64,000 nt of DNA, from the UHGV virus genome UHGV-0247568. The stretch is one strand, 5' to 3'. Numbering within the stretch: the stretch's first letter is position 1; every line of letters starts with the position of its first letter. Both the position numbers and the translations under genes were made by a program. This DNA comes from a virus. The notes below the pieces were generated by a model. The model was not told where the DNA came from and searched no databases. It saw nothing but the letters and a program-made list of their open reading frames with translations. Shown here in pieces: positions 11,400-47,211 of this stretch.

Positions 11400-12350
11400 T
11401 GAACACACTTTAATGCATTAATGATTGATGTGATGACACAGCACATACGTTGCACACATAAAGTTGAAGCAAGAAGTAAAAGTGTTTCACTGTCAGTCAC
11501 TCTCAAGCTGTCTATACTCACTATAGTAGATATATCCTACACACCCTCAAGACGTCCCTCAGACATACCTCAGACACTACCCCTGTCTACTATAATCTAT
11601 ATAATACACTACTATGATATAATATAACAATAATATGTACTATTATGCTGTATATGTACACTATATAATGTACGTATAATGTACACCCTGAGTACACATA
11701 TAATATATATTATATATTTTGTGGTGCATATATGCTGTTATTATGTAGCTGATATGCAATATATATAAATAATGTGTACACACTATGTACATTATAGTGA
11801 TGCAATATTATAGTGCAACAATATACTGACTTTATATATAATATATAATCTATATACGTGCTATATGGTATAATGGTATACTGTACCATATTTTACCTGA
11901 TATATATGGCATGTTATATACGGCTATCTATATACGGGTATATACATGGGTATATAGGTACTCCATGGTGTATATGTGCCTATCCTTATAGACGATATAT
12001 GGTATATATAATAAAAGGATTATGACCAACTCCATGGAGTAGATAACAGATATTTATTGCATACATTTTTGCGAAGCAAAATGTATGCTCCTTACGTTTT
12101 GCGAAGCAAAAACGTAAGGATTGGTAACTGCTTACTATTCCTCTTAAATATACAAATTCCTCTTATTCTAATATAAAATATCAAATAGTCTAATATATAA
12201 TAATATCTCCCTCTTTGATGTTTACACCTCCATGGTGTATAGTGTAAAATATCAAATATACTAATCTATATATATAGGATTCGGTGTTTTTGTGATTTTA
12301 CAGTTTACAGTTGACAGTTAGTATGATATAATATAATTATCTTAAATATG
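11400..12350. repeat. AT-rich non-coding region with short iterated motifs (GGTATATA, ATGTACAC), the direct repeat TTTTGCGAAGCAAAA x2 and a perfect 11-bp-stem hairpin (12090-12119); candidate origin/regulatory region
   Basis: No credible ORF in ~950 bp; located at the switch between the leftward and rightward gene blocks. Contains 3 CTCCATGG(T/A)G sites. Confidence 0.45.
12286..12335 (+). promoter_or_regulatory. Early promoter with three tandem -35-like boxes (TTTACAG TTTACAG TTGACAG) and extended -10 TGATATAAT
   Basis: 'gtgattttacagtttacagttgacagttagtatgatataatataa'. Confidence 0.5.
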
Positions 12351-12359
12351 AGGAGATGA

Positions 12360-12572
12360 GCTGAATTTGAATTAGTTAAAGGACGTTTTAAAGTTGGAGA
12401 CAGATTTAGACACATTCGTTATGGAAACTTGAATGTATTAAAAATTATAGAAGTCAGAGAATATGAGAGACATTTGCCAAACTATAGAGTGATTAGTGAA
12501 AATAATGGCTATAAATATTTGATTAGTGAAGATGAGTTAGTGAAATATCCAATTATTAGAAATGAGGAATAA
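12360..12572 (+). CDS. Small SH3/KOW-like protein (start codon uncertain), member of a small paralog family
   Basis: 70 stop-free codons '...KVGDRFRHIRYGNLNVLKIIEVREYERHLPNYRVISENNGYKYLISEDELVKYP...'. Similar to N-terminus of 22058 ORF and to 42268 ORF. No in-frame ATG; a TTG at 12429 possible. Confidence 0.35.
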   Translation, partial: AEFELVKGRFKVGDRFRHIRYGNLNVLKIIEVREYERHLPNYRVISENNGYKYLISEDELVKYPIIRNEE

Positions 12573-12575
12573 ATT

Positions 12576-14174
12576 GTGAAAAAGAATACAAAGGGAGAAA
12601 TTGACTTACATTTAATTTTAGGTCAAGCTGGAAGTGGAAAGAGTAGTAAACTATTTAATATGATTGAAACTGAAATGAACGAAGGTAAAATGAGACCGAT
12701 TATCTTATGTAACAAATGGTTATTAGTTCGTTCGACTGAAAAGAAAGTTAGTAAGTTAAATGTCAATCATAATGTTCGTGTGCAAACAGTTCAATCAATT
12801 ACTGAACGAACGATTAATGTGCAGAATCAATTAGCTGGAATTGATACAATTATTTTAGATGAATTTAGTCAAATCGATTATAACACGTTGCTTTCATTAA
12901 CAGATGCTTGTAAAAAAGTTGGAATTACAAGAATCGTTGCAGCAGGTGACTTCTTACAAAATGAACCGATTAAAGGTGGAAGTTATAGTCCAATGCGATT
13001 AATTATTCGTCAATTCTTATTAGGAATTACATCAAACTTCTTCGCTTCATTGAACTTTTATCCGATTTACGAGTGGCTAAAAGATCAATCACAATATAAC
13101 CATGGAGTGTTGGAAGTTCCTAAGGATTTGCGCACTATGCTAAAATCAATTACTTATGAAGCGCTTTTGGACAATTGGAGACAAAATGGTAAAGTAACTA
13201 TTCGTAATAGTCAAGATATGCGACAATTGTTAGCTGATAATTTATATCTATTTCAATATGATGGTGAATATAAAGATAAATTGAAAAAAGCTATTATGCG
13301 AAAAGATTGGCAGATTATAGTTGCAGATTGGAAGCAAATGGCTGTTGTTAATAAATTTGCGTATGATAATGGTTTAAATGGATGTCAAACTGATTATTAT
13401 ATCGACATCCGTGGTTATCAAGATGAAAATTATCGCAACTATTATAAATTGACACAAAAAGGATATAGATTAATTAATGGTCGTGATGATTCAATTAAAG
13501 ACGATTTTGAATTGATGCAATGTATTCGTCCGACATTTGCAATTATTGCTGATAGTGCGCAAGGATTAGAATTTGATAACGTTATGCTTGTTTCATTATT
13601 AGATGAAAGTGTAAATAAAGGAAGCAAATACAAAAGTTGGTCAAATTTTTCATTCAACTCATTATACATGGCAATGACTAGACACAAGATTGAAGTTGAC
13701 TTATGTGTTGATGAACATGGATGGAAAGATATGAATAGAACATTAGACATTGTGCCTTATGCAAAAAAAGATATGATTGAAGAAGAGTGGTTACATTATT
13801 GTGCTCGTGTAAATATGCCAGCATTTGAAGCGTTAGAAATGTATAAGAACAAAAGTCACTATTTTGTAAACAATGGATATTTTGTTTCAAATATCGGTAA
13901 CACTGTTGTTCGGTTCGCAAAAGGTACCAAAACATTTGATATTGGATTAAAACCAGATTATACTCTTTTAAAATTATGGAAACAATATCACCCAAATATT
14001 ATTGATGAAAATGTTGAAAAAACATTGAAAAAAAGTAAAACAAACAATAGTAATACTGTTATTTTAGATTGGATTAATGAAATTGGTAAAGAAAATATTG
14101 ATATGAGTTTATCAGTTCGTAAATTCAAAGCAAAATATGGAAAAACAAAAAGTCAAGTTGAAAAATATTTATAA
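12576..14174 (+). CDS. SF1 DNA helicase (Dda/RecD/Pif1-like)
   Basis: Walker A 'GQAGSGKS', Walker B 'IILDEFSQ', motif III-like 'AAGDFLQNEP'. Confidence 0.6.
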   Translation: MKKNTKGEIDLHLILGQAGSGKSSKLFNMIETEMNEGKMRPIILCNKWLLVRSTEKKVSKLNVNHNVRVQTVQSITERTINVQNQLAGIDTIILDEFSQIDYNTLLSLTDACKKVGITRIVAAGDFLQNEPIKGGSYSPMRLIIRQFLLGITSNFFASLNFYPIYEWLKDQSQYNHGVLEVPKDLRTMLKSITYEALLDNWRQNGKVTIRNSQDMRQLLADNLYLFQYDGEYKDKLKKAIMRKDWQIIVADWKQMAVVNKFAYDNGLNGCQTDYYIDIRGYQDENYRNYYKLTQKGYRLINGRDDSIKDDFELMQCIRPTFAIIADSAQGLEFDNVMLVSLLDESVNKGSKYKSWSNFSFNSLYMAMTRHKIEVDLCVDEHGWKDMNRTLDIVPYAKKDMIEEEWLHYCARVNMPAFEALEMYKNKSHYFVNNGYFVSNIGNTVVRFAKGTKTFDIGLKPDYTLLKLWKQYHPNIIDENVEKTLKKSKTNNSNTVILDWINEIGKENIDMSLSVRKFKAKYGKTKSQVEKYL

Positions 14175-14259: not shown

Positions 14260-16224
14260 ATGGACTTTAAAAGATATAATGAAAGAGAGGCAAAGCAGTA
14301 TACAGCTCATTTGTGTTATCAATTAGGAATTGTTTATAATATTGCTAAATTGATTGCAGAAGATGAACCAACGTTTGTGGCTTTAAATAAAGCTTACAAA
14401 AACAAAGATGATGAATCATATGACAAAGCTTTTAATTTATTAAAGCAAATTAATGGAGTTGGACCAAAACGTGCAGCTTTATATTTAGAAAAATATTTTG
14501 AAAACCCATATCGTTCTATTAATTGGGAAATGTTTAATATTTTACAAAAATATCAAAAAGTGACTGGTTGGTCAGATAATCGATTATATGATTTAGCTCG
14601 CCGTATTGATGACCCTTCAAAAATTTGGGACACATTTTTATATGATAGTTCTATCACATTACCAATTGCTGTTGAAATTTATAAAATGACAACTGAAGAT
14701 GATGTGTATTTACAAAACCAAACAATTGAATATTTTTCAAATTTCGTTAAATTGCGCGAAATTCAAAATGGACAAAATCGTCTTACAGTTCCTAAATTCA
14801 ATATTAACAAAGAATTAAATGAGAAGTATGACGTTTTCTTAGAGGTAAAAGATGTTGTTATGTTGAAAAATACCGCCATGGACTATGTTACAATTCTCAA
14901 ATATTTCAATGAAAATAAAGATAGTGAACTAATCTTTGAGTTAAATGAGGATATTGATGTTTCAGATTTTGGATCAGATCAGTTGGTTGCATTTGAGAAA
15001 TTAAGATGTAAAAAGACAATGATGTTGACTGGTTTTGCTGGAACGGGTAAAACTTACATGTTAGACAAATATATCAAAAATTTAATGGGTGCGAAGGTTT
15101 ACGCTTGTGCACTCGCTGGTAAAGCTGTTAAAAACTTTGTAAATGCAATGAGTCCAGATAGTATGAGAAAAGTTACACAATCCACGGTGGCTGGACTTCG
15201 ATATGTTCCAAAGTATCAAAGTGAATTACACGATTCGACTATTGTAATTGTTGATGAAGTCTCCATGGTGTCTATGTCTGATTTAGCATTTATTATTAGA
15301 AACTTAGACGACGAACAAAAGCTCATTTTAATTGGAGATATTAATCAATTACCAGCTATTGAATTGGATGTTATGAATTGGTTAGTAAATGATGGAGAAA
15401 TTGAATTAGTTACTTTAGACATTCCAAAACGTCAAAGTGCAGATTCCGGAATTTTTAAAGACAGTATGTCTATTATTCGTAAAGAAGTTCCTGATTTTAG
15501 CACGGAAGATAGTCAAGTTAGAATTGGTGCTACAACAGTTCAAAAAATTATTTATGAAAATCGTGATGCAGACATTTTTCTAACAACAACGAATCAAGTG
15601 AAGGATATTATTAATGAAGTCAAATCCAATGAGATTCGTCAAATTCCAAATCATGCAGTATTTAAAAATAAATTATACAAGCAAGAAGTCGAATTCCACG
15701 AAGGTTATCAAATTATGATTGGTAAAAATAATGTTGATACTGGTTTAATGAATGGTGATATTTTTGTTATTAATTACGAAGGACATTTAACTGATCCTTA
15801 TACAGGAGAAATCGCAAGAGATTTAGACGGAAAACCTCTTAAAATAGGAGAAAATCGTGATTATGTTGATGCTGGCTTTGGTGGAAAGAGCAATATTATC
15901 GACACCACGGCACATAACGTTCAAATGGCATTTGCTATTACGACACACAAAAGTCAAGGTTCGACTATGATGAAAGGTGTCACTGTTATGGGTAAAGGTC
16001 CATTAGCTAATCGTAATTTATTATATACAGCTTTAACACGTTTTAAAGAAAAACATGTGTTATACTTACCAGATGAAACTTTATTAGATACAATTTTAAA
16101 TACTGATGTAAAATATGAAAAATTATCTAAAGAAGACCAACAATTTTTAACTGAAATTGTTGAATTAGAAAAAAAGAAAGAGGTAGGTACTAATGATGCA
16201 AATGATGCAGCAGAAATTTTTTAA
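14260..16224 (+). CDS. SF1 DNA helicase (RecD/Dda-like), second copy
   Basis: 'GFAGTGKTY', 'IVIVDEVSMVS', 'ILIGDINQLPAI' (GDxxQLPP motif). Confidence 0.7.
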   Translation: MDFKRYNEREAKQYTAHLCYQLGIVYNIAKLIAEDEPTFVALNKAYKNKDDESYDKAFNLLKQINGVGPKRAALYLEKYFENPYRSINWEMFNILQKYQKVTGWSDNRLYDLARRIDDPSKIWDTFLYDSSITLPIAVEIYKMTTEDDVYLQNQTIEYFSNFVKLREIQNGQNRLTVPKFNINKELNEKYDVFLEVKDVVMLKNTAMDYVTILKYFNENKDSELIFELNEDIDVSDFGSDQLVAFEKLRCKKTMMLTGFAGTGKTYMLDKYIKNLMGAKVYACALAGKAVKNFVNAMSPDSMRKVTQSTVAGLRYVPKYQSELHDSTIVIVDEVSMVSMSDLAFIIRNLDDEQKLILIGDINQLPAIELDVMNWLVNDGEIELVTLDIPKRQSADSGIFKDSMSIIRKEVPDFSTEDSQVRIGATTVQKIIYENRDADIFLTTTNQVKDIINEVKSNEIRQIPNHAVFKNKLYKQEVEFHEGYQIMIGKNNVDTGLMNGDIFVINYEGHLTDPYTGEIARDLDGKPLKIGENRDYVDAGFGGKSNIIDTTAHNVQMAFAITTHKSQGSTMMKGVTVMGKGPLANRNLLYTALTRFKEKHVLYLPDETLLDTILNTDVKYEKLSKEDQQFLTEIVELEKKKEVGTNDANDAAEIF

Positions 16225-16729
16225 AGGTCAGACCATGGAGGTAGTTGGTGCTCTCAATGACGAAAATTATAACATTTATCTTTTACACATGGGAGATTTT
16301 TGTCAAATTGTAGAAGAATTAGAATATGATAAATATTTAGTGCAATTTGAAAATGGTAAAAAATATGTTTTACGTGGAAAATGTTTATCACCAAGTTCAT
16401 TTCCTTTTATTGATAAATCAACAATTATCGTAGCTAATAATATAGGAGTTTTTAACAACGTTAAATATGATGCAGATAAAAAAGCTTTCTGTTTTGAATT
16501 AAAACATTTAGTGGATATTGTTTACTCCACGAAGGATATTCAGAAATTACGTTCAGTCGGATATACTAATTTTTCTACAGTGATCAATGAGAAAATATTT
16601 GAAATTTGTAGACAGCATGGATTAGAAAATGCCACCATGGAGGAAGCAGCAGAACTCTTTAGTTATTTTATGAAAAAAGATTATGATCGTGCTATTGAGA
16701 AATATGGTGAACTCCATGGAATTCGATAA
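16193..16729 (+). CDS. Hypothetical protein
   Basis: 178-aa ORF in early array. Confidence 0.4.
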   Translation: MMQMMQQKFFKGQTMEVVGALNDENYNIYLLHMGDFCQIVEELEYDKYLVQFENGKKYVLRGKCLSPSSFPFIDKSTIIVANNIGVFNNVKYDADKKAFCFELKHLVDIVYSTKDIQKLRSVGYTNFSTVINEKIFEICRQHGLENATMEEAAELFSYFMKKDYDRAIEKYGELHGIR

Positions 16730-18434: not shown

Positions 18435-19724
18435 TTGATGAAATGGTTTGAAATTTTAGAAGAAGTTAGTTTTGCAAAAGGTAAAGAAAAAGTTGAAGTA
18501 TTGAAAAAACATAAAGATGCAGCATTATTACCAGAGATTTTAAATTTTTTATATAATCCACGAATTGTTACTGGAATTAGTAAAAAGAAAATGGGTAAAG
18601 AATTAGAAATTTCAAAAACAGTTGAAATTCCTGATGAGAACCATAGAGTAGCTTCAATAATGGAATATTTACATGAAAATAATACTGGAAAAGATCAAGA
18701 TTTAATTTTTGTAAAATCTATTATTGAATCAACTGACGATATGAAGGAACGTCAATTTTTGGAATCTTTAGTTGTAAAAGATATGCCAATTGGAATTAGT
18801 GCGAATTCAGTTAATAAAGTATGGCCAAAATTAATTCCAGTTTTTAAATTACAAAAAGGACAATTATTTGAAGGCTCATTTGAAGGACCACAAATTGTAT
18901 CATTAAAAATTGATGGCAATAGTGCAACAGTTTTTAATTTAGAAGAGAAAACTTATATGCTTTCAAGAAGTGGCGCTATTATGGAAGGTTTTGACCATAT
19001 TCTCAATTATTATCGTCATATTCTACCTTTTGGATATGTTTATCAAGGTGAATTAATTGCGAAAAATTATAATAATTTAGACCATGGAGAATTATTCCGT
19101 TATTCAAATGGTATTACAAACAGTAAGAAAAACGATGAAAAGACAATGTTACAACACGTAGTATTTGACGTAATTCCCATTGAGGATTTTGAAAAAGGAA
19201 AGAGTGACATGGTTTATATTGATAGAATCTCAATTGCGCAGTCTTGCGTTGAGGAATATCAACCATACGGAGAAACGTATAAAAACGTCTGTGTTGTGCC
19301 TTTCTATTCTCATACGACAAAAATTGAAAATATTATGAATTTAGCAAATGAAGTGATTAAAGATGGATTAGAAGGTTTGATGATTTGTACGTCAGATTCC
19401 AAATATAAAGTTGGTAAACAAAAGTGGCTGCAAAAAGTTAAAGAGTTTAACGCAATGGACTTAGAAGTTATTGACATAAAAGAGCACGTTCGTGGTGGGA
19501 AAGTTGGAGCTCTTATTGTAAATTATAAAAATAATGAAATCGGTGTTGGCGGAATTACTGATGAATTAAGAGAAAAATGGTGGAATAATCCGAATGAAAT
19601 CATTGGTAAGATTATTGAAGTAAAATATTTCCGCTCCACGGCGGATAAAAATGGAAAAGAATCACTCCGTTTTCCTACTTTCGTCCGTGTACGTGATGAT
19701 AAATTTGAAGAAAGTTTTGATTAA
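18435..19724 (+). CDS. ATP-dependent DNA ligase
   Basis: Nucleotidyltransferase motif I 'SLKIDGNSA' (KxDG). Downstream 'EGLMIC' and 'KYKVGKQK' motifs. 429 aa. Confidence 0.7.
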   Translation: MMKWFEILEEVSFAKGKEKVEVLKKHKDAALLPEILNFLYNPRIVTGISKKKMGKELEISKTVEIPDENHRVASIMEYLHENNTGKDQDLIFVKSIIESTDDMKERQFLESLVVKDMPIGISANSVNKVWPKLIPVFKLQKGQLFEGSFEGPQIVSLKIDGNSATVFNLEEKTYMLSRSGAIMEGFDHILNYYRHILPFGYVYQGELIAKNYNNLDHGELFRYSNGITNSKKNDEKTMLQHVVFDVIPIEDFEKGKSDMVYIDRISIAQSCVEEYQPYGETYKNVCVVPFYSHTTKIENIMNLANEVIKDGLEGLMICTSDSKYKVGKQKWLQKVKEFNAMDLEVIDIKEHVRGGKVGALIVNYKNNEIGVGGITDELREKWWNNPNEIIGKIIEVKYFRSTADKNGKESLRFPTFVRVRDDKFEESFD

Positions 19725-20620: not shown

Positions 20621-20833
20621 ATGACAGAAAAAATGATTGATTGTGAATATGGTGACAAATTTTTCATTGATAAAAGTACGAACTTAGATGGAGAGAATAT
20701 TGTACAATTTCAAATGACGGAAAGTGATGAAATTTGTTACGTAGATAAAGTTAGTTTAAATAAGGAAGCGTGTATTGATTTAATTAAAATTTTAAAAAAG
20801 GATATGGATATAAAAGATGAAGAATTGGTATGA
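20621..20833 (+). CDS. Hypothetical protein
   Basis: 70 aa. Confidence 0.35.
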   Translation: MTEKMIDCEYGDKFFIDKSTNLDGENIVQFQMTESDEICYVDKVSLNKEACIDLIKILKKDMDIKDEELV

Positions 20834-21227
20834 AGAAAATGATATTTTGATGTCTATTGAAAATAGTCAGAAATACATTGTTTCAAAAGCTCCAAATGAT
20901 GATAATACTTTTTATAAGTTAATTCCTTTTAATAATCGATCAGAATTAAATAATAAAGAGGTTATGAACGCAAAATTAAAAATCATTGCTTTGCCTAAAG
21001 TAGTCCATGGCGAAATGATTATGATTGGTAAAAACGACGATTATTGCCGTATTGTTCCGGATCCTCTTAAAGTAATTAACGAAAATGGGAAATTCATTCA
21101 GTTGTCGGTAGATAACGAAGTCCATGGAAAAATCGAAATTAAAATTGGAAAAGAACGTATCCATTTAGATGAAAAAGAACTCAATGATTTAATTGATGAA
21201 ATTGAGGAAATAAAAAAATATCTATAA
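20817..21227 (+). CDS. Hypothetical protein
   Basis: 136 aa. Confidence 0.4.
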   Translation: MKNWYEENDILMSIENSQKYIVSKAPNDDNTFYKLIPFNNRSELNNKEVMNAKLKIIALPKVVHGEMIMIGKNDDYCRIVPDPLKVINENGKFIQLSVDNEVHGKIEIKIGKERIHLDEKELNDLIDEIEEIKKYL

Positions 21228-21256
21228 AAAGTATTTTAATAAAATGGTCCATGGAG

Positions 21257-21311: not shown

Positions 21312-21872
21312 ATGTGTAAAATAATGAATGTAGCAGTTTTTATGGGTTCAAGATTTGGAAAAAATAAAATGCACAAAACTAATGCTAAAAAGTTAGGTAA
21401 AACATTAGCATTAAATGATCATATGTTAATTTATGGTGGTTCTGTTTCAGGATTAATGGGAACAGTTGCAAAATCTGTTAAAAAATATGGTGGAAAAGTA
21501 ACTGGTGTTTATCCAAAGGGACATTTTGAAGATGAGAAACCACTTTACGATATTGACTTTTTTATTGAAGTTGACAATATGGATGATCGTAAGAGAAAAT
21601 TAATTGATTTGGCGGATGCATATGTAATCTTACCTGGCGGCACAGGTACTCTTGAGGAATTCGCACAATTACTTTGTGAAATGATGATTAATATCACTCC
21701 ATGGAGACCAATTTTTATCCTTAATGAAGATGGTTTCTACAATGGATTAGCTTCACAATTATACACTTTCATTCATGAAGGCTTTAGTTATGAAAATAAA
21801 AAATTAGCAAAACATATTTATATTTGTGATACAATTGATATTTTACAAGAGAAAATCGAGGGATTATCATGA
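21312..21872 (+). CDS. LOG-family (TIGR00730) Rossmann-fold nucleotide N-glycosidase-like protein
   Basis: Signature 'IYGGSVSGLMG' and 'LPGGTGTLEE' (PGGxGTxxE). Confidence 0.65.
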   Translation: MCKIMNVAVFMGSRFGKNKMHKTNAKKLGKTLALNDHMLIYGGSVSGLMGTVAKSVKKYGGKVTGVYPKGHFEDEKPLYDIDFFIEVDNMDDRKRKLIDLADAYVILPGGTGTLEEFAQLLCEMMINITPWRPIFILNEDGFYNGLASQLYTFIHEGFSYENKKLAKHIYICDTIDILQEKIEGLS

Positions 21873-22684: not shown

Positions 22685-22712
22685 AAATTAAAAAATATTT
22701 GCTCCATGGAGT

Positions 22713-22740
22713 TTACAAAATTCCATGGAGTTGATATAAT
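22713..22740 (+). promoter_or_regulatory. Promoter TTTACA / TGATATAAT with CCATGGAG copies immediately upstream and inside the spacer
   Basis: 'gctccatggagtttacaaaattccatggagttgatataat'. Confidence 0.55.
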
Positions 22741-25035: not shown

Positions 25036-25075
25036 TAAACATATATAAGAGAAAGAAAACGTAGGAGAGATTATA

Positions 25076-26107: not shown

Positions 26108-26154
26108 GAGTAGTTTACAAAACTACTCTTTTTTGATATAATATAATTATAAAA

Positions 26155-34978: not shown

Positions 34979-36555
34979 GCACCATGGAGTTAACATTAAA
35001 TCCGACAAGAGCGATTTACAATTTTTTTGGCTCTGTAATGAAATCACCTGATATTTTGAAAGCGCCTGAAATTATTTTAGGTGATCGTGATTTTGTTCAA
35101 TCATTTCATAAAATTGTATATGCAGCATTAAATAACATTATTTTTAGTAATAGAGATAATATTAGTGATATTAGTCCAATTGATGTAGATAATTATCTTG
35201 CAAAATATCCAAATTATTATCGAGTTTGGGAAGAGAATAATGGTGTTGAATATTTAAATAATGCGAAACAAGTTTCAAACACTCAAATTGCAAATAAAGA
35301 TTATGAAACAATTAAAAAATTTAGTTTATTGAGAAATTATGTTGAAAATGGTATTGATGTTTCAGATATTTATGAATATGATAGCAATGACTTAGGTGCA
35401 TTAACAGAAAGTAATAAAGTATTAGAAAATACAAGCATTAATGAAATTATTGAACATTTTACACAAAAAGCAATTGAAATTCGCAACGAGTGGAATGTTG
35501 ACGATGGAAAAGTTAAAGACTTTAAAGCCGGTGATGATTTAGATGGACTTTTAGATCGTTTAGTTGAGAATCCAGATTTAGGTTTTCCATTTCAAAATTT
35601 AATGTATAATACACTTTTTCGTGGAATGCGTAAAGAGAAGTTTATGTTGAGATCGGGTGCAACGGGAACTGGTAAAACTCGTCAAGCTATAAGAGATATG
35701 GTATCAATTGCTTGTGATAAAATTTGGGTCACAGGATTAGGTTGGAAAAGTCTGGGTCCTTCGTTTCCAGCATTGTTTATATCAACCGAAATTGAACAAG
35801 AAGAATTACAAACAATTATGTTGGCATATTTAACCGGAATTCCGGACTCTGATATTAAAAATGGTAACTATGATTCGGCAACACGTAAGAGATTAGAAGA
35901 GGCAATTGAGATTTTGAAGAAAGCGCCTTTATTCATGACTTACATTGAGGACTTCTCAATCAGCGATATTGAAATGAAAATTGAAGAGTATATTGTTAAA
36001 GAAAACGTACAATATGTTGCATTTGACTACGTTCAAATGACACCAAAATTGAGTAAAACAATGAACGATAATTTTGGAACAACTTTACGTGAAGATCAAA
36101 TTTTAGTTCATTTTTCGTCAGCATTAAAAGGTATTGCTGGTCGTTATGGAATTTTTCTTGAAAGTAGTACACAATTAAATAGAGGTAGTAAAGAAATCGA
36201 AAATCGTGATGCGTCTTCACTTCGTGGAGGTTTAGCGACAGCTGATAAGGTCGATTATGGTATTTTAACATTTAAAGTTTCTCAGAAAGAAAAAGATGGA
36301 TTAAAACATATTTTGCAGCAAGGTTTTGGTGGAGATATTCAAAAAACACCGGATTTTTCACATTGGGTTTATAAAAATCGTGCTGGTTTGGACCATGTTG
36401 TAATTTGGACAAAAATGAATTTGGGAACAATGCGTGAAGAAGTATTATTTGTAACTGATTATGATTTTAATTTAATTGAGATAAATGGAACTGAAATTGA
36501 ATTTGAAAGTGTTGATACAATGCCAGAAGAAATTGAAAATGTTCCAGTGTTTTAG
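34975..36555 (+). CDS. Replicative DNA helicase (DnaB-like)
   Basis: 'RSGATGTGKT' Walker A, 'LFISTEIEQEEL', 'VAFDYVQM', 'ESSTQLNRG' correspond to DnaB H1-H4 motifs. Confidence 0.65.
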   Translation: MSTMELTLNPTRAIYNFFGSVMKSPDILKAPEIILGDRDFVQSFHKIVYAALNNIIFSNRDNISDISPIDVDNYLAKYPNYYRVWEENNGVEYLNNAKQVSNTQIANKDYETIKKFSLLRNYVENGIDVSDIYEYDSNDLGALTESNKVLENTSINEIIEHFTQKAIEIRNEWNVDDGKVKDFKAGDDLDGLLDRLVENPDLGFPFQNLMYNTLFRGMRKEKFMLRSGATGTGKTRQAIRDMVSIACDKIWVTGLGWKSLGPSFPALFISTEIEQEELQTIMLAYLTGIPDSDIKNGNYDSATRKRLEEAIEILKKAPLFMTYIEDFSISDIEMKIEEYIVKENVQYVAFDYVQMTPKLSKTMNDNFGTTLREDQILVHFSSALKGIAGRYGIFLESSTQLNRGSKEIENRDASSLRGGLATADKVDYGILTFKVSQKEKDGLKHILQQGFGGDIQKTPDFSHWVYKNRAGLDHVVIWTKMNLGTMREEVLFVTDYDFNLIEINGTEIEFESVDTMPEEIENVPVF

Positions 36556-36567
36556 AGGTGAAATAAT

Positions 36568-37173
36568 GTGAAATTGAAACAAAATAAATTTTACGTATAT
36601 GAGCACTGGTATAATGGTCAATGTTTTTATGTAGGAAGTGGTAAATATAGAAGAGCATATGATTGGCGAAGAGAAGGAAGAAGAAGCAAGGAATGGTATG
36701 ATTTTTGTAAAAAAGATTATGATAATTTAGTGGTTAAAATAATTGGTGAATTTGACACAAGCGCTGAAGCCATTGAATTTGAAAAAGCTTTAACTATTTA
36801 CAATGATTATATTTTAAAAATGCCACTTGTTAATTTGGGAACTGGAAATTCTTTTTATGGAAAAGCAAATTCAATGTATGGAAAAAATGTAAAAAACTAT
36901 ATGGATTATGATAAATGGTTATTAAAAAATAAAAAACAAGGAGAAAAAATTTCTGGAGAAAAACACCCAAAAGCTAAAAAGATCATTGCAACAAATATTA
37001 TATCAGGCGAAAAAATATGCTTTAACACTAAGAAAAATTGTGCCGAATATTTTAAAGGACAATTTTCATGGCTAAGTATAGAAAAACATGTTCGTGGTGA
37101 AAAAGTGATAAAAATAGATAATAGTGAATGGAGATTCAGTGAAATGGCAGGTGAAAAACACTGTGAATGCTAA
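36568..37173 (+). CDS. GIY-YIG homing endonuclease (GTG start)
   Basis: 'FYVYEHWYNGQCFYVGSGK' GIY-YIG variant; free-standing between helicase and primase genes. Confidence 0.55.
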   Translation: MKLKQNKFYVYEHWYNGQCFYVGSGKYRRAYDWRREGRRSKEWYDFCKKDYDNLVVKIIGEFDTSAEAIEFEKALTIYNDYILKMPLVNLGTGNSFYGKANSMYGKNVKNYMDYDKWLLKNKKQGEKISGEKHPKAKKIIATNIISGEKICFNTKKNCAEYFKGQFSWLSIEKHVRGEKVIKIDNSEWRFSEMAGEKHCEC

Positions 37174-37355: not shown

Positions 37356-38213
37356 ATGTCGATATTCGATATGGTCGCAAAAGTTATTGATGGTGAATTT
37401 ATAGATGCTTTAAAATTTATAGTAAAAAAATATAATTTACAAGATAATAATTATCAAGTTGGTTTTACATTTGAAAAAGTAGAAGATCCGGGTAAAAAAT
37501 TATTAGAAAAAATGAAAGGAGTAGAAATGCCAACTTTCATAAAGTTAAACTCGGATATTTTAAAAGACTTTTATCCATTTTATCACCAACTTTGGATAAA
37601 TGATGGAATTTCTATAGAATCAATGAAAAAATATAGAATTAAATATTCCATTGAGAATAATCAAATAATTATTCCGCACTTTGATAAAAATGGAAATTTA
37701 ATTGGAGTTCGTGCTCGTAATTTAAACAAAAAAGAAGTGGATGAAGGTAAAAAATATATGCCAATATTCCATGGTGGTAAAGTTTTAAAACATATGACTG
37801 GAGCAAATTTATACGGTCTTTATGAAAACAGAGAAAATATTGAAAAAGATAAAAAATTAATATTGTTTGAATCAGAAAAAAGTGTTTTACAATTAAACAG
37901 TATGTTACCAGATCATTCAATTGGTGTATGTGTTTCAGGCTCTTCATTAACACAATATCAACTTGAATTAATCAAGGAACTTAATATAGATGAAGTAATT
38001 ATTGGTGTTGATAAAGAATTCAGTGAAGTTGGAACAGAAAAAGAGAAAATATATGCTGAAAAAATATTAAGAGTTTTTAAGAGAAAATTAGCACCATATG
38101 TAAGAGTGTCAGTTTTATGGGATTTGGAAAACGACATTGAGGAAAAAGATAGTCCCACTGATAAAGGAAAAGAAATATTTTTAAAATTATTTAAAAATAG
38201 AATATATATTTAG
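37356..38213 (+). CDS. DNA primase (DnaG-type, TOPRIM domain), body
   Basis: TOPRIM 'ILFESEKSVLQL...VIIGVDKEF'. In-frame upstream codons back to 37272 encode the rest of the Zn ribbon. Confidence 0.65.
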   Translation: MSIFDMVAKVIDGEFIDALKFIVKKYNLQDNNYQVGFTFEKVEDPGKKLLEKMKGVEMPTFIKLNSDILKDFYPFYHQLWINDGISIESMKKYRIKYSIENNQIIIPHFDKNGNLIGVRARNLNKKEVDEGKKYMPIFHGGKVLKHMTGANLYGLYENRENIEKDKKLILFESEKSVLQLNSMLPDHSIGVCVSGSSLTQYQLELIKELNIDEVIIGVDKEFSEVGTEKEKIYAEKILRVFKRKLAPYVRVSVLWDLENDIEEKDSPTDKGKEIFLKLFKNRIYI

Positions 38214-38223
38214 GAGAGATTTG

Positions 38224-40050
38224 ATGGAATTCACAGAGAAAAATTTGTTTAACCCAGGAAAAAATTCGTTCGTTGAGGATGTGTTAGCACTCCATGGAGT
38301 TAATCCAGAAATGTTTTTAAATGGAAAAGACCACGAAGATGAAATTACTTCAAAACCGAGTTTATATTTCAATATGTTTAAAGCTGCTAATCTGGTGCGA
38401 AAACATATTGGAACAAATTCGTCAATTGGAATTTTAGTGGATGATGATGCTGATGGAATGACTTCTGCCGCGGCAATGGCACGTGTGTTATTTAAGAGGG
38501 GACACCATGGAGCGAAATTTATTTTTCATGATGAGAAAGGACATGGACTCCATGGAGAAGTTGAAAAAATCATTGAGCAAAAAATTGACTTCTTAATTGT
38601 GCCCGATGCAGGCTCTAATGATTTTAAAGAACAAGAAGAAATATTAGAAGCTGGGATTGACTTATTAATTTTAGACCACCATGGAGTAGATAATGAAAAA
38701 CCAATTTTAGAATTGGAAGCATTATACAATGGTTATGCATTAGTAAATAATCAATTATCTTATAACACAAAAGGTGTTAATAAACAGCTTGTTGGAGCAG
38801 GAATGGTTTATAAATTTGCTCAAACTTTAGATGCTGAATTTGGAACTGATGAATTTTCAAAAGATATTATTGATTTAGTAGCAGTTGGACAAATTGGTGA
38901 TGCAAGTGATGTATCAGATTTAGAAATTCAATTAATTATTCGTGAAGGATTAGATAATTTAAAAAATCCACTGTTAGTAGAAGCATTAAGAAACCGTATT
39001 GTAAAAGGTCAAAAAATTGCACCTATCAATATGTCGTTTGATATTATTCCATATATTAATGCTGTTACACGTGTTGGAAAAATGGATGAAAAAATCGAAT
39101 TAATGAAAGGACTAATTGGTTTTTGGCCAGCTGATGAAACGGTTATCATTCAAAAGAGAAGAAAAAACAAACTAACAAACAAATTTGAAATTCGTGAAGA
39201 ACCATGGACTCACTATGGAATCTTAATGGATAATTTATCAAAAATTAAAAATAGACAAAACAAAGAAATTGATAAAGTTCTCAAAAAAATTGAGGATCCT
39301 TATAATGAAAATATTGTTATCGCGGCCCTCAATGAAGATGAGATCGAATATCGATCAATCACTGGGTTAATTGCTAATAAATTGGTTTCTCAATATAATA
39401 AACCAGCACTTGTATTAATTTCTGAAGAAAAAGGAACAAAATTTAGTGGTTCAGCTCGTGGACATGAAAAAACTGTTTCTTCATTCAGACAATGGTGTTT
39501 AAGCACTGAACTATTTGAATTGGCGCAAGGACATGATAATGCATTTGGTGTTATTATTGATGAACTAAAATTAGAAGAATTAATGCAAAATGGAACTTTA
39601 GAAACAGAAGTAAATCAAGTGACATATGAAGTTAACAAAATCTATGAAAATGAAACAAACATTGAGGAAATCAAAATGATTAACGACAATGCGTGGATTT
39701 TCGGTGGCTCCATGGCGGCACCGAAATTTGGTTATAAAAACTTAGTGATTGGTCGCAATTGTGTATCACAAAGAGGTTCTGTGGTTACGTTTTTCGACCA
39801 TGGTTTAGAGTTTATTATGTATAAACAACCAGCTGGTTTAGTTGATTCATTTTTAGAAAAAATGGGCTTTGAACAAAAATTAGTAGTAAATTTAGTTGGG
39901 CACGCTAGTAGAAATGAATGGAATGGAAGAGTAAAAGAACAAGTGGTTTTAGATGATTTTGAAATGATGACATTAGCAGAAAGTGGAATTGAAGATAAGG
40001 CACCAACTTTCGATCCTAACTTTGATGATGATGGAAATTTAGTTTTTTAA
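38224..40050 (+). CDS. DHH-family phosphoesterase (RecJ-like exonuclease)
   Basis: DHH motifs 'VDDDADGMTSAA' and 'LILDHHGVD'. GGAG RBS before ATG 38224. Confidence 0.65.
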   Translation: MEFTEKNLFNPGKNSFVEDVLALHGVNPEMFLNGKDHEDEITSKPSLYFNMFKAANLVRKHIGTNSSIGILVDDDADGMTSAAAMARVLFKRGHHGAKFIFHDEKGHGLHGEVEKIIEQKIDFLIVPDAGSNDFKEQEEILEAGIDLLILDHHGVDNEKPILELEALYNGYALVNNQLSYNTKGVNKQLVGAGMVYKFAQTLDAEFGTDEFSKDIIDLVAVGQIGDASDVSDLEIQLIIREGLDNLKNPLLVEALRNRIVKGQKIAPINMSFDIIPYINAVTRVGKMDEKIELMKGLIGFWPADETVIIQKRRKNKLTNKFEIREEPWTHYGILMDNLSKIKNRQNKEIDKVLKKIEDPYNENIVIAALNEDEIEYRSITGLIANKLVSQYNKPALVLISEEKGTKFSGSARGHEKTVSSFRQWCLSTELFELAQGHDNAFGVIIDELKLEELMQNGTLETEVNQVTYEVNKIYENETNIEEIKMINDNAWIFGGSMAAPKFGYKNLVIGRNCVSQRGSVVTFFDHGLEFIMYKQPAGLVDSFLEKMGFEQKLVVNLVGHASRNEWNGRVKEQVVLDDFEMMTLAESGIEDKAPTFDPNFDDDGNLVF

Positions 40051-40754: not shown

Positions 40755-41138
40755 ATGGATAATAATAAAATTGAAGATAGTAAAGTGGAGAAAATAATTG
40801 ATTTAATTGAATCGTTATTAATTGTTAGTGAAATTAATGAAGAAACAGAAGTGTGGATTGAAACACTAACTCCTTCGCATGGGCAGTGCCACTTACCAGT
40901 TACTGGTCTCTCCATGGACGGCGAAAATGATCTCTTTTTACTATTAGATATTGATAAAGACCATGGTGTTAAAGTTCCACAATTACTTGAATATTTACAA
41001 AAATATACTGATGAGAATGAAGTAGAAGAATTATGGTATTGGAGTGGAATTAACGAACCTTTTACAGTTGATTCATATTATATTATGGAAGATAACACTT
41101 TAGTTTTTAGTGATTATAATGGTGAACGCGATGAATAG
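40755..41138 (+). CDS. Hypothetical protein
   Basis: 127 aa. Confidence 0.4.
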   Translation: MDNNKIEDSKVEKIIDLIESLLIVSEINEETEVWIETLTPSHGQCHLPVTGLSMDGENDLFLLLDIDKDHGVKVPQLLEYLQKYTDENEVEELWYWSGINEPFTVDSYYIMEDNTLVFSDYNGERDE

Positions 41139-44350: not shown

Positions 44351-45409
44351 ATGGAAATTTTATTATTGAATGTCGCAAATAACATTACGGATTTTCGAAC
44401 AGTGTCAAGTGGGGAAACAGTTTATCTAAAACAAATGTTAGAACAGTTAGGCCATGGAGTTACAATTGCTTCAAATAAAAACGGTGAATATGCAGTTGCA
44501 TTTGAGGAAATTGAGGATATTAACAATTTTGACAAAGTGGTTGTTTTACCTGCTTCACTGAATTTTTTCGGTGGTGTAGAAAACCCAACAATTATTAAAA
44601 ATTATAAATTATTAGCAAAATATAATGGAACTATTAATATTTTGCAAACTGACGCACGTTTGCCATTCAAGCAGTTGTGGCCAGCAATTGAGAAGCGTGG
44701 ATGGGGATATAAAAAAGAAGAAGTTTGGATTAATGCCCCAATTAAAGTAATTGCACAATCAAAAAATTTAGATGAAGTTAAAACACAATATGAAAAAGAA
44801 ATTTTCAATGATATTGAGTTTACACATTTTCCAATTGAGCGCTATGCTGGCATTGTGGCGTTAATGAATCCAATCGATGAAGTCGAAGAAAAAGAACACG
44901 ATTTAGTTTATTATGGTTCATTCCGTGGAGGCAATCGTGCTGCTAAAATGGCAGAATTTTTATGTGGAAACATTGTAGAAAAATTAGATGTCCACGTATT
45001 TGGAACAATTCGAGAAAAACAATTAGCTAAAAGTAGTGAAGGTCCATTTCCTTCGTTTGGTAAAAAGATGAAAATGAATGAAATTAGACAAGAGGTTAGC
45101 AAAAGTTTCTCAACTTTAATTATTGGTGAAAAATTTTATAATAATGCAATGTTGACAGTGAGGGTTTGGGAAACATTAAGTAGCGATGCGGTAGTTCTCA
45201 TTGACAACGATTTTGACTCTTACCATAATTTATTTCCTAATTCGCCATGGCGGTATGTTGAAAAAGAAGAAGATCTTATCGAAGTAGTAAAATCTCTTAA
45301 AGATGACGAAAATAAGAGAAAATTAGCGATTCAAGAGCAAAAAGAAGTGTTAGAAAAAATGATTGATTCTTCTCAATGGTTAAGAGATTTTGAAAATATT
45401 TTAGCTTAA
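44351..45409 (+). CDS. DNA beta-glucosyltransferase (T4 BGT-like)
   Basis: 352 aa; T4 BGT is 351 aa. N-terminus 'LLLNVANNITDFRTVSSGETVYL', 'NFFGG', 'DARLPFKQLWP', 'GSFRGGNRAAKMAEFL', 'LTVRVWETLSSDAVVLIDNDFD' parallel T4 BGT 'AIINMGNNVINFKTVPSSETIYL', 'NFFGG', 'DIRLPFSQSWP', 'LRVWETMASDAVMLIDEEFD'; T4 sequence from memory. Confidence 0.6.
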   Translation: MEILLLNVANNITDFRTVSSGETVYLKQMLEQLGHGVTIASNKNGEYAVAFEEIEDINNFDKVVVLPASLNFFGGVENPTIIKNYKLLAKYNGTINILQTDARLPFKQLWPAIEKRGWGYKKEEVWINAPIKVIAQSKNLDEVKTQYEKEIFNDIEFTHFPIERYAGIVALMNPIDEVEEKEHDLVYYGSFRGGNRAAKMAEFLCGNIVEKLDVHVFGTIREKQLAKSSEGPFPSFGKKMKMNEIRQEVSKSFSTLIIGEKFYNNAMLTVRVWETLSSDAVVLIDNDFDSYHNLFPNSPWRYVEKEEDLIEVVKSLKDDENKRKLAIQEQKEVLEKMIDSSQWLRDFENILA

Positions 45410-45480
45410 CGGTTTACGTTAAGCTTTTTTTATGATATAATATAACTATAAATAAATTAGAAAGAAATGGAGAGAAATTT

Positions 45481-46005
45481 ATGACAGTTCAGTTTAAAGC
45501 GAAAGGACATGAAGATAACATTATTCACTTATATTCAGATGGTGGTTGTCGGTCAACTGCTAAAAAAGGTGAAACTATAAAAGAAACAGATAAAAGTGCT
45601 TATGCATTCTTCTTAAAACAAGGTGGAAATGAAAAATTAGATGGGAAAGCAAGCTATGGAAAAACAAATAACAATCAAGAAATTATGGGATTATTAATGG
45701 GTTTACGTGCTATTAAACGCCCAGAATTTCCAGTTGTTGCATATTTAGATTCGGCTTATGTTGTTAATTGTTTACAAGCTGGTTGGTGGAAGAAGTGGAA
45801 AGCTAATGGATGGACGAAAAAAGGTGGATTAGCAAATGCTAAAGAATGGAAAGAATTAATTGAAGAATTAGAACGTTTTCCATTTTTTAGAATTGAAAAA
45901 GTTAAAGGACACAGTGGTTTCGCAGATTATAACGATTTAGTTGATAAACACTTAAATAAATTAATGGATGAATTACCTGAAATTGGAAAGGGAAATGTTT
46001 TATGA
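45481..46005 (+). CDS. Ribonuclease H (type 1)
   Basis: 'LYSDGGCR', 'NNQEIMGLLMGL', 'AYLDSAYVVN', 'KVKGHSG...YNDLVD' RNase HI catalytic motifs. Confidence 0.75.
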   Translation: MTVQFKAKGHEDNIIHLYSDGGCRSTAKKGETIKETDKSAYAFFLKQGGNEKLDGKASYGKTNNNQEIMGLLMGLRAIKRPEFPVVAYLDSAYVVNCLQAGWWKKWKANGWTKKGGLANAKEWKELIEELERFPFFRIEKVKGHSGFADYNDLVDKHLNKLMDELPEIGKGNVL

Positions 46006-46964
46006 TATATTATGGAGAGCCATATTTTGAATTATTTTCATATGAGGCGACTGATAAAGCAAGAAATGACACTTGTAAAATATTAAACTCCATGGGGTAT
46101 TCACCTTTAAAATTATCTTGTTTTTCAGGCGTGAACATTGAGAAAGCTGATGAAGAATTAGCCAACATTGAGGAAAATGACATAATTCTCTTACAATATC
46201 CAACTTACAGTGGAGCAGATTATGAAAAGAGATTAATTGAAATTTCTCATAAGAAAAAAGCAAAAATTGGCGCAATTGTTCACGATCTAGAATCTATAAG
46301 ATTCTATGGAAATGATAGTGACATTGAGATTTTAAATGGCTTTGATATTATTTCACTTCCCTCCATGGAGATGTATAAAAAACTCTTAAAACAAGGACTA
46401 AAAACAAAAGTAAAGATACAATTGATTTGGGATTTTCTCGCCATGGATAATCAACAGTGGTATGACACAAATTCGGACATTGTCTTTGCAGGTAATTTAA
46501 CAATGGAAAAGAGTAAATGGATAATGGATGTAGATTTTCCTATGTTAGTATATGGAGACAATATCAATAATTTAACTTTTAATGATGGTGTAAAATATTG
46601 TGGTAAAAAACATGACTCAGATTTAGTGAAAGAAATTGGTGGACAAATTGGATTATTATGGGAAGAAGGATTATATAAAAATTATTTAAAATATAATTTA
46701 TCATTTAAGCCTTCTTTATATCTTGCGGCAAATTGTCCAATTATTGTTCCAGCTAAAACACATATCGGAAATATTGTTGAAACATATAAAATAGGTGTAA
46801 CTGTTAAAAATATTGAAAGACAAACAATGTTAGATGCTGTTATTAAATTAAAAGATAATTTGAATTTTTATCAAGAGCGCGTCTCAACATTTGGAGAAAC
46901 AATTAGAAATGGGCAAAATATGAAAACGTTAGTTGAAAGCATGGTGAGAGAAATTGAAAATTGA
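46002..46964 (+). CDS. Hypothetical protein; possible second (GT-B-like) glycosyltransferase in the DNA-modification block
   Basis: 320 aa, no clear motif match; inference from context only. Confidence 0.3.
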   Translation: MIYYGEPYFELFSYEATDKARNDTCKILNSMGYSPLKLSCFSGVNIEKADEELANIEENDIILLQYPTYSGADYEKRLIEISHKKKAKIGAIVHDLESIRFYGNDSDIEILNGFDIISLPSMEMYKKLLKQGLKTKVKIQLIWDFLAMDNQQWYDTNSDIVFAGNLTMEKSKWIMDVDFPMLVYGDNINNLTFNDGVKYCGKKHDSDLVKEIGGQIGLLWEEGLYKNYLKYNLSFKPSLYLAANCPIIVPAKTHIGNIVETYKIGVTVKNIERQTMLDAVIKLKDNLNFYQERVSTFGETIRNGQNMKTLVESMVREIEN

Positions 46965-47211
46965 AATGTATGTTTTTGATAAAGTTGAGGTCGATTATGA
47001 AAATTTCACTAATACTGAATATGGAGAACAATGTAAGATTTATCGATTCTCCCAAGTTGGCTTAAACTCGGAAATAAAATCAAAAATTTATTCAATTAAA
47101 TTTAGAAAATTATTAAAATATCAATGGTATGTTGATTTACAAATTTGGATTATGAAAATGAGAAAGAAAACATTTGTGCAAAATGTATTAGGAAGGGAAT
47201 ACCATGGATGA
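46954..47211 (+). CDS. Hypothetical protein
   Basis: 85 aa. Confidence 0.35.
   Translation: MKIEMYVFDKVEVDYENFTNTEYGEQCKIYRFSQVGLNSEIKSKIYSIKFRKLLKYQWYVDLQIWIMKMRKKTFVQNVLGREYHG

Follow-up and report, generated by a model that had tools for sequence, protein, structure and literature searches.

A dispersed array of the palindrome CCATGG in the early-gene arm of Enterococcus phages related to VPE25

Background

Arrays of short, repeated DNA sites have been described both in phages and in bacterial chromosomes. In Cluster A mycobacteriophages, tens of near-identical short sites, the stoperators, are reportedly bound by the gp71 repressor of phage L5; they are dispersed over many kb at about one per 1-2 kb, a few serving as true operators at promoters and the others, within transcription units, being thought to block elongation. 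In bacterial chromosomes, palindromic sites for a dimeric protein (matS for MatP, NBS for Noc, and SBS for SlmA) are restricted to, or excluded from, one chromosomal domain; we know of no domain marking of this kind in a phage genome. Palindromic hexamers are also the sites of Type II restriction-modification (R-M) systems such as NcoI, and phages normally lose Type II restriction sites. In Bacillus phage SPβ, a 15-bp motif, SPBRE, is bound by MrpR (YopR) at about 10 promoter regions only (PMC10516654). Here we describe an array of the palindrome CCATGG in a 64,000-nucleotide stretch of the virus genome UHGV-0247568, referred to below as the window.

Like stoperators, the CCATGG sites are tens of near-identical short sequences dispersed over many kb, a few of them at promoters and the others within transcription units. 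However, stoperators are asymmetric 13-mers in a fixed orientation to transcription, are mostly intergenic, and span the whole genome of a temperate phage with an identified repressor, whereas CCATGG is a palindrome that lies 86% inside genes and in one arm of a lytic phage with hypermodified DNA. SPBRE is likewise a repeated DNA element, and the SPβ replication module is related to that of the window (homologues of PolIII-alpha YorL, YorF, YorH, and YorJ). The analogy was set aside because element type and copy number differ, CCATGG being a hexamer with at least 40 copies inside genes; an integrase-like gene related to the SPβ system is present both in the genus Vipetofemvirus and in Denvervirus, which is free of the CCATGG array. 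As with matS, NBS, and SBS, the palindromes are confined to one contiguous domain and thus could label it, but the chromosomal systems operate at megabase scale and far lower density, with 12-16-bp sites and known readers. An NcoI-type R-M system would share the identical 6-bp palindrome and the all-or-none hexamer specificity; unlike its usual targets, however, the sites here have been gained rather than lost, a search for a cognate enzyme gene was negative, and the phage has DNA of the glucosyl-hydroxymethylcytosine (glucosyl-hmC) type. Stoperators are the nearest functional parallel, with SPBRE and the chromosomal systems as looser ones. Since the array lacks defining features of each, we class it with dispersed cis-acting protein sites but outside every named family compared. 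No description of it was found in full-text literature searches on phage VPE25, Vipetofemvirus, and the motif.

Over-representation of CCATGG

An exact search of the window found 42 copies of CCATGG, running from 11963 to 47202-47207, with a mean spacing of 0.84 kb across this interval and no copy in positions 1-11900 (11.9 kb) or 47300-64000 (16.7 kb). A preliminary description, made by reading the sequence, had counted about 40 sites between 12.0 and 47.2 kb and none in 12 kb on the left side or 17 kb on the right. Both counts are borne out; its first coordinates, 12018 and 12043, are corrected to 11963 and 12032, and the others were 0-8 nt off. Its further claim, that the excess goes beyond compositional expectation, also stands. 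Dinucleotide-preserving shuffles of the window yield 5.4 ± 2.3 copies (maximum 12), and Markov models predict 2.9 (order 1), 4.7 (order 2), or 8.2 (order 3) inside the interval; an order-4 model predicts 25.6, but it contains the motif's own pentamers. When the codons of open reading frames (ORFs) in the interval are resampled synonymously with the proteins held constant, 6.1 ± 2.0 copies are expected versus 38 observed in ORFs. The same resampling of the right-hand region gives 1.8 expected versus 0 observed, which is not significant avoidance. Among the 64 palindromic hexamers, CCATGG alone shows such an excess, which amounts to about 10 times expectation and is confined to a 35-kb stretch of early genes.

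By sequence identity, the window belongs to a Vipetofemvirus (subfamily Andrewesvirinae), a genus whose members are siphoviruses of 85-87 kb: a 10-kb piece is 97.8% identical to the Enterococcus phages vB_EfKM29, vipetofem, VPE25, and VFW, and about 91% identical to nattely and vB_EfaS_140. Gene functions given below are transferred from annotated relatives. Minus-strand genes for head, portal, and terminase occupy positions 1-10 kb of the window, followed from about 10.3 to 64 kb by a single long run of plus-strand genes; the CCATGG interval (11963-47207) is the first ~35 kb of this rightward block.

Anatomy of the site

The bases around the hexamer are also biased. C is present at position -2 in 25 sites and G at +7 in 30 (background 0.11 and 0.18), with T/A at -1, A/T at +6, and weaker preferences for A at -3 and T at +8. 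The site consensus is a symmetric 10-12-mer, (A)CTCCATGGAG(T), with the optimum ACTCCATGGAGT. CWCCATGGWG occurs 15 times versus 0.03 expected, and the full 10-mer CTCCATGGAG seven times. The earlier statement that most sites are extended in this way roughly holds for each single flank but fails for the full 10-mer, as only 19 of the 42 sites carry both C(-2) and G(+7). One-mismatch versions of the core are weakly enriched at most, the half-sites CTCCA and TGGAG are unenriched after full sites are masked, and CTCC and GGAG occur at no spacing other than contiguous. The mirror symmetry of the flanks, together with the invariant contiguous core, thus points to duplex DNA that is read by a two-fold symmetric factor. 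The site, flanks included, is its own reverse complement, and the orientation bias of polar guide motifs (Chi, KOPS, and uptake sequences) is absent.

A related heptamer, TCCACGG, occurs nine times versus 1.2 expected (2315, 6671, 15181, 19635, 22228, 22909, 24133, 43440, and 44923), on both strands and without common flanks, and is present in 7-8 copies in VPE25 and nattely versus one in phage 9183. It had been reported to cluster in the same interval; the heptamer is indeed over-represented, with seven of nine copies inside, but the hexamer CCACGG/CCGTGG is not restricted (2, 10, and 5 copies in the three regions of the window). Being one transition from TCCATGG, TCCACGG may be a precursor or a decayed form. 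A second enriched word of the arm, AGAAAGTAGGA, occurs seven times in 11900-47300 versus 0.04 expected (order-3 model) and might be a ribosome-binding-site variant.

Selection at the level of DNA

The intragenic copies fall in all three codon phases, as the preliminary description had noted: 20 sites read C-CAT-GG (His-Gly), 11 read xCC-ATG-Gxx, and five read CCA-TGG (Pro-Trp), while six lie outside confident ORFs. Codon choice in the interval is strongly skewed toward the hexamer. His-Gly dipeptides use CAT in 28 of 28 cases, and the preceding codon ends in C in 21 of them (background for third-position C, 8%); Ser, Thr, Ala, or Pro followed by Met and a G-starting codon is encoded by NCC in 12 of 24 cases (background 4%); and Pro-Trp is CCA-TGG in 5 of 5. 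His-Gly itself is found at 2.6 per 1000 codons in the interval versus 0.67 and 0.35 in the two flanking regions, a difference of about 4-7 fold.

Comparison with orthologs in phage 9183 (Denvervirus), whose proteins are 50-87% identical, shows how the sites differ between genera. At some orthologous positions 9183 has identical residues with other codons (CCT TGG, ACT CAT GGC, AGT ATG ATT); at others Arg-Lys, Gln-Gly, Ala-Ser, Tyr-Glu, or Ser-Gly stands in place of His-Gly. Thus, both silent and replacement substitutions were recruited in building CCATGG sites. Purifying selection also maintains them: in nattely, whose DNA is 93% identical, 35 of the 42 sites are intact, compared with 70% of hexamers overall and 54% of those rich in G+C. 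A four-genome comparison of the arm gives 53 distinct site positions in union, of which 34 are present in all four genomes and the remainder are lineage-specific, so turnover is continuing. Codon statistics, synonymous shuffles, and ortholog comparison together uphold and strengthen the earlier proposal that selection acts on the DNA rather than on the proteins, and they show that sites were built even at the cost of protein change.

The 42 sites are listed by the coordinates of their 10-mers; genes in the interval are on the plus strand, and residues or codons of phage 9183 at the orthologous position are in brackets.

11961-11970, CTCCATGGTG: left non-coding region, with a doubtful 55-aa ORF only
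12030-12039, CTCCATGGAG: intergenic, directly upstream of two tandem hairpins
12228-12237, CTCCATGGTG: in the spacer of promoter-like TTTACA-N18-TAAAAT (12221-12250)
13098-13107, AACCATGGAG: ORF 12576-14174 (AAA_30 helicase-like), His-Gly phase
14874-14883, CGCCATGGAC: RecD-like helicase ORF 14260-16224, Ala-Met-Asp phase
15261-15270, CTCCATGGTG: ORF 14260-16224, Ser-Met-Val phase (9183: AGT ATG ATT)
16231-16240, GACCATGGAG: ORF 16193-16729
16633-16642, CACCATGGAG: ORF 16193-16729
16712-16721, CTCCATGGAA: 15 nt before the end of ORF 16193-16729
19080-19089, GACCATGGAG: DNA ligase ORF 18435-19724, His-Gly phase (9183: GGT CAT GGT)
21003-21012, GTCCATGGCG: genus-specific ORF 20817-21227
21120-21129, GTCCATGGAA: ORF 20817-21227
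21247-21256, GTCCATGGAG: abuts the -35 (TTTACA, 21257) of the LOG-family gene promoter
21697-21706, CTCCATGGAG: LOG-family ORF 21312-21872, Pro-Trp phase (9183: ACT TGG)
22295-22304, CTCCATGGCG: nucleoside deoxyribosyltransferase ORF 22058-22684, LHG (9183: LRK)
22389-22398, CTCCATGGGC: ORF 22058-22684, Pro-Trp phase (9183: CCT TGG)
22702-22711, CTCCATGGAG: abuts the -35 (TTTACA, 22712) of the deoxynucleoside-kinase promoter
22721-22730, TTCCATGGAG: in the 17-nt spacer of the deoxynucleoside-kinase promoter 22712 (-10 TATAAT at 22735)
24272-24281, TACCATGGAG: PnuC-like ORF 23633-24388, YHG (9183: MQG)
24351-24360, CTCCATGGGC: ORF 23633-24388, Pro-Trp phase (9183: CCT TGG)
25976-25985, TACCATGGAC: sigma-like ORF 25076-26107, YHG (9183: YAS)
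27487-27496, CTCCATGGTG: genus-specific ORF 27011-27664
28564-28573, AGCCATGGTT: SSB/YorF-like ORF 27916-28884 (9183: ACT CAT GGC)
29737-29746, ATCCATGGTG: ORF 29434-29877
29806-29815, CTCCATGGAG: ORF 29434-29877
34980-34989, CACCATGGAG: codons 3-5 of DnaB ORF 34975-36555
37767-37776, TTCCATGGTG: primase ORF, FHG (9183: FYE)
38290-38299, CTCCATGGAG: RecJ-like ORF 38221-40050, first of its seven sites
38503-38512, CACCATGGAG: RecJ-like ORF
38548-38557, CTCCATGGAG: RecJ-like ORF, LHG (9183: LSG)
38677-38686, CACCATGGAG: RecJ-like ORF, HHG (9183: HHE)
39200-39209, AACCATGGAC: RecJ-like ORF, Pro-Trp phase (9183: CTT TGG)
39708-39717, CTCCATGGCG: RecJ-like ORF
39796-39805, GACCATGGTT: RecJ-like ORF, DHG (9183: NQG)
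40910-40919, CTCCATGGAC: ORF 40755-41138
40959-40968, GACCATGGTG: ORF 40755-41138
44450-44459, GGCCATGGAG: beta-glucosyltransferase ORF 44351-45409, a genus-specific gene
45243-45252, CGCCATGGCG: beta-glucosyltransferase ORF 44351-45409
46088-46097, CTCCATGGGG: Gtf3-like glycosyltransferase ORF 46002-46964
46361-46370, CTCCATGGAG: ORF 46002-46964, SME (9183: SYK)
46439-46448, CGCCATGGAT: ORF 46002-46964
47200-47209, TACCATGGAT: last site, at the end of ORF 46954-47211; its ATG starts ORF 47204-47395

Distribution among phages

The array is shared by close relatives of the window phage. VPE25 contains 56 copies of CCATGG, 48 of them in the homologous arm, and vB_EfKM29 has the same numbers; nattely contains 43, of which 40 are in the arm. 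The genus boundary was examined with a comparison set of five lineages. A single CCATGG is present in the 86 kb of phage 9183, and metagenomic contigs with 64-69% identity in RecJ carry 0-1 sites over 9-22 kb, versus 20 in the window over the same genes. Staphylococcus phage 6ec, a distant relative with the same replication module, lacks CCATGG and has no other enriched palindrome. In the unrelated E. faecalis siphophages Ef6.1 (Efquatrovirus) and SAP6 (Saphexavirus), 4 and 5 sites are found versus 4-10 expected. General host-driven selection was rejected for now, since these two phages are at expectation, a result that argues for a phage reader rather than a general host reader. From these comparisons, the array is a derived character of Vipetofemvirus and not of host range. 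A scan of IMG/VR for CCATGGAGTTTACA returned only chance matches plus vipetofem itself.

The sole annotated gene whose distribution matches that of CCATGG is the beta-glucosyltransferase gene, which is present neither in 9183 nor in the intermediate lineages; about two dozen small ORFs without an assigned function share the same distribution. Candidates for an equivalent palindrome elsewhere were rejected. In 9183, TTGATCAA shows only a weak excess (22 versus 6.5, with 14 copies in the homologous arm). In the metagenomic L015/L018 lineage, CGATCG (9 in 15-22 kb versus 1-4 expected) is neither strong nor arm-restricted, being found five times versus about two expected in the right-hand region (L019).

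Promoters, expression, and placement of sites

Around 20 σA-type promoters, TTTACA-N17-TATAATATAAATAT, lie inside the interval, and the site-free right part has about 13 more of this class. The class consists of TTTACA, 17 nt, and TATAAT, usually followed by ATAAATAT. A separate promoter class for the interval was rejected because the same promoters are found inside and beyond it. The interval had been described as one transcriptional block, but with promoters of this class inside and beyond it, it is not a single transcription unit, nor does published RNA-seq show a clean split. At 10, 20, and 40 min the rightward genes all behave as early genes, and some sub-blocks rise later without following the CCATGG boundary (PMC7064774, Table S2A).

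Four of the 42 sites touch promoters, three in number (12221, 21257, and 22712), in operator-like positions. Copies previously placed at 21249 and 22704 do abut a TTTACA -35 element, and that at 22723 lies in a spacer, as described; the copy at 12230 is also in a promoter-like spacer. The overlapping sites at all three promoters are conserved in all four genomes. Promoter 21257 drives the LOG-family and deoxyribosyltransferase genes, and promoter 22712 drives the deoxynucleoside kinase and PnuC-like genes; their equivalents in 9183 are the same promoters with no palindrome. The mean fractional position of sites between successive promoters is 0.69 versus 0.51 ± 0.045 for random placement, and inter-site gaps of 130 bp or less number 13 versus 5.9 ± 2.1 expected. 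Both statistics are exploratory, rest on our own predicted promoter list, and are leads, not proofs. Start codons coincide with just 1-2 sites.

Many early promoters are fused to terminators, with the -35 TTTACA in the loop of a G+C-rich hairpin whose T-run is the promoter spacer, so that one compact module ends one unit and starts the next. Such fusions include 25006-25040, 26114-26148, 48886-48920, 52823-52857, 58229-58263, and 58602-58636. At 22702-22730, two CCATGG copies stand at the positions that hairpin arms have in these modules. The right boundary of the array, near 47.2 kb, showed neither a special repeat nor a special structure.

The left non-coding region and a candidate genome end

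Window positions 11282-11332 are where the GenBank entries for VPE25, nattely, and vipetofem start or stop, one of them in opposite orientation and with 550 bp missing on the other side. This point lies in a G+C-rich block just past a terminator, about 0.63 kb left of the first CCATGG site. The packaging module consists of an HNH gene, a P27-family small terminase, and a large terminase, an arrangement reportedly typical of cos packaging. Because of this arrangement, we suspect that 11282-11332 is a physical genome end (cos). If so, the CCATGG arm would be the left 41% of the linear genome and, by analogy with λ, would be packaged last and ejected first. However, the authors of the VPE25 study inferred a circularly permuted, terminally redundant genome (PMC4999554), and the metagenomic scaffold L021 reads straight across the junction.

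The surrounding non-coding region (11190-12350) is structured and has no Rfam match; it might serve as an origin or in packaging, or encode a small RNA. Terminator hairpins after ORF 10310-11188 are followed by the G+C-rich block (11250-11420), an AT-rich block of short repeats (11600-12030), and a tandem pair of hairpins (12059-12125) with TTTTGCGAAGCAAAA in common (RNA fold -30.3 kcal/mol, z = -4.8). In phage 9183 the arrangement is the same, but the hairpins differ in sequence.

Gene content of the window

Genes up to 47.2 kb include those for two RecD-like helicases, a ligase, nucleotide-salvage enzymes, a sigma-like factor, SSB, Sak4, DnaB, primase, a RecJ-like nuclease, a ThyA-like protein, dUTPase, a T4-like beta-glucosyltransferase, RNase H, and a second glycosyltransferase, Gtf3-like. 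To the right of 47.2 kb are genes for thymidine kinase, PolIII-alpha, a second dUTPase, guanylate kinase, RusA, a second sigma-like protein, and topoisomerase II. VPE25 DNA resists bisulfite and MspI and is cut by PvuRts1I, which indicates glucosyl-hydroxymethylated cytosines (PMC4999554); this bears out the hmC/glucosylation machinery assumed in the preliminary description.

Several other features were observed. A 596-bp insertion with a GIY-YIG-type ORF (36568-37173) lies between dnaB and the primase gene and is not in VPE25 or nattely. The primase gene itself has a 1-nt insertion relative to VPE25 at about 37282, which splits the reading frame and could be an assembly error or a pseudogene. 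A genus-specific ORF (57659-58066) has a lipoprotein-type N-terminus (NCBIfam and PHROG matches to lipoprotein signal regions) and is a possible superinfection-exclusion protein. On the minus strand, a tRNA gene (7494-7565), called tRNA-Trp in the annotations of nattely and 9183, separates the large terminase gene from the small one.

Discussion

We tentatively propose, with a probability of about 0.4, that CCATGG marks dispersed binding sites for a symmetric, sequence-specific DNA-binding factor that acts on the left, early arm of the genome. Given the promoter overlaps, a DNA-binding regulator is the most parsimonious explanation, and of the four functions suggested in the preliminary description, a site for a regulator or architectural protein remains the best. 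The motif, with optimum (A)CTCCATGGAG(T), would be a cis-acting site read on double-stranded DNA by a homodimer. The analysis demonstrates the sites, their symmetry and selective origin, their confinement to one genus and one arm, and their overlap with promoters; that a protein binds them, that it is phage-encoded, and what its binding does are inferred. It would have arisen, or changed its specificity, within the Vipetofemvirus lineage. Positive selection fixed some 40-48 sites over the leftmost ~35 kb of the rightward early genes, and a few of these would be classical operators at the three σA-type promoters, where binding may repress the nucleotide-salvage operons and the first early promoter. 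The many intragenic copies, distal in transcription units and often paired 45-130 bp apart, suggest collective action on the whole arm; they might serve as roadblocks to elongation or as insulators between tightly packed transcription units, or carry an arm-specific nucleoprotein coat, giving the arm a regulatory or architectural state distinct from the rest of the genome.

A number of observations weigh against this proposal. Most of the sites (36 of 42, or 86%) are inside genes, and the published RNA-seq (10, 20, and 40 min) reveals no expression difference between site-rich and site-free rightward parts. An invariant hexamer without one-mismatch enrichment resembles the specificity of an enzyme more than a family of operators. 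Pfam, PHROGs, NCBIfam, and PDB sequence searches with about 35 ORFs, genus-specific ones included, returned nothing DNA-binding, and no RHH, ParB, or TetR domain was detected in domain scans of phage ORFs. The sole candidate that resembles a helix-turn-helix (HTH) protein is ORF 10310-11188, for which the AlphaFold model is unusable (pLDDT 46). This early ORF, beside the putative genome end, has just three homologues in 5.8 billion proteins and a strongly conserved, HTH-like C-terminus (…LRNSGYSPKNIAKMYGISYEQ…). In addition, glucosyl-hmC on 4 of the 6 core base pairs, in the major groove, would hinder an ordinary HTH reader. The probability given above is held at 0.4 because no reader was found, the hexamer has an all-or-none, enzyme-like character, and the glucosylated cytosines would be in the way.

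The enzyme-like character could mean that CCATGG is recognized by an enzyme of the R-M type (of phage or host; it could be a methyltransferase, some other site-specific modification enzyme, or an endonuclease resembling restriction enzymes), possibly coupled to glucosyl-hmC and with sites kept for a functional mark or cut, such as epigenetic timing or recombinogenic ends. We consider this unlikely, even though the strict 6-bp palindrome is identical to the NcoI site, mismatch variants and half-sites are unenriched, each full site offers four modifiable cytosines (six in the 10-mer), and the trait shares its lineage with acquisition of a T4-like beta-glucosyltransferase. Neither the annotations of the four genomes nor domain scans of phage genes contain a methyltransferase or restriction-like gene, so the modification site proposed in the preliminary description lacks a supporting gene; cytosine replacement seems to be global (bisulfite- and MspI-resistant DNA), leaving a site-specific step unneeded; a dimeric nuclease would make about 40 cuts in the genome of the phage itself; for a modification motif there is no reason to be restricted to 41% of the genome; and Type II enzymes do not usually have flank preferences that reach ±6 bp. 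A phage nickase, also proposed, is unlikely for a perfect palindrome. Somewhat more doubtful than an R-M-type enzyme is a polar DNA transaction from the left genome end, either staged or assisted entry or the last phase of packaging. It would account for sites that fill one contiguous arm beside an end: the first site is only ~0.63 kb from where three independently deposited records start or stop, the terminase module is of a kind reported to be cos-typical, a terminase-proximal start of packaging as in λ would place the arm last in and first out, all early genes point away from the end, and the density of about one site per 0.84 kb is like that of uptake and guide motifs. But a palindrome has no direction, the inferred circular permutation and scaffold L021 speak against a fixed end, nothing special marks the right boundary near 47.2 kb, and the ratchet force of such sparse sites would be negligible; moreover, entry or packaging sites of such a sequence-specific kind have no known precedent. 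The earlier suggestion of a recombination or packaging signal thus retains only an indirect basis, in that the cluster starts beside a probable genome end.

Action in mRNA, where the element would read CUCCAUGGAG and be a nuclease or ribosome target (compare GGAG for T4 RegB) or pair copy with copy, is very improbable. All interval genes are on the plus strand, so that each intragenic copy is transcribed, the motif includes GGAG and its complement CUCC, and the two copies that flank the -35 at promoter 22712 are arranged like the arms of a terminator-promoter hairpin. However, mirror-symmetric flanks favor duplex DNA read by a dimer, several copies are upstream of or within promoters, and the motif cannot self-fold, its loop being just 2 nt. 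Hairpins between neighboring copies were rejected for want of covariation: flank pairing is 2.0 versus 1.9 paired positions, with no compensatory pairing beyond the consensus. We give equally little credence to an array with no function, left by shared ancestry or by biased mutation or repair, such as a very-short-patch (VSP)-like correction to CCATGG. In E. coli, an increase in CCWGG has been ascribed to VSP repair, and TCCACGG, one transition away, is also in excess here. Yet the excess of CCATGG, 5- to 15-fold, is far over the modest increase ascribed to VSP in E. coli; many sites required several substitutions, including amino-acid changes; the deamination-type neighbors CTATGG and CCATAG are not depleted; a bias would not halt at 47.2 kb; and the sites are conserved better than comparable hexamers.

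Given the obstruction expected from the sugars, and given that the glucosyltransferase co-occurs with the array, a reader of the sugar pattern itself is conceivable. In this more speculative version of the DNA-binding proposal, which we regard as improbable, the left 41% of a lytic phage genome would be addressed by a palindrome array read in its glucosyl-hmC form by a modification-dependent, sequence-specific reader, acquired with the beta-glucosyltransferase, and the arm would thereby gain a separate physical or temporal state. Such a reader might hold or compact the first-entering DNA, or silence the arm later. If true, this would be a virus-scale analogue of chromosomal macrodomain marking.

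Significance

VPE25 is the main model of Enterococcus phage biology and a phage-therapy candidate, and about two thirds of its genes are without known function. That a motif was selected more than 40 times, with conserved replication proteins altered in the process, signals an important interaction of DNA with a protein or an enzyme, one not described before. The problem is tractable: the bait sequence is exact, presence in Vipetofemvirus versus absence in close relatives narrows the genes, and sites can be removed by recoding. For analyses of restriction-site avoidance the array is a caution, since a classical Type II site is here enriched and not depleted. The interaction bears on how proteins read heavily glycosylated DNA and on whether phages split their genomes into differently treated domains and, if the link to a genome end is true, on staged entry in Gram-positive hosts.

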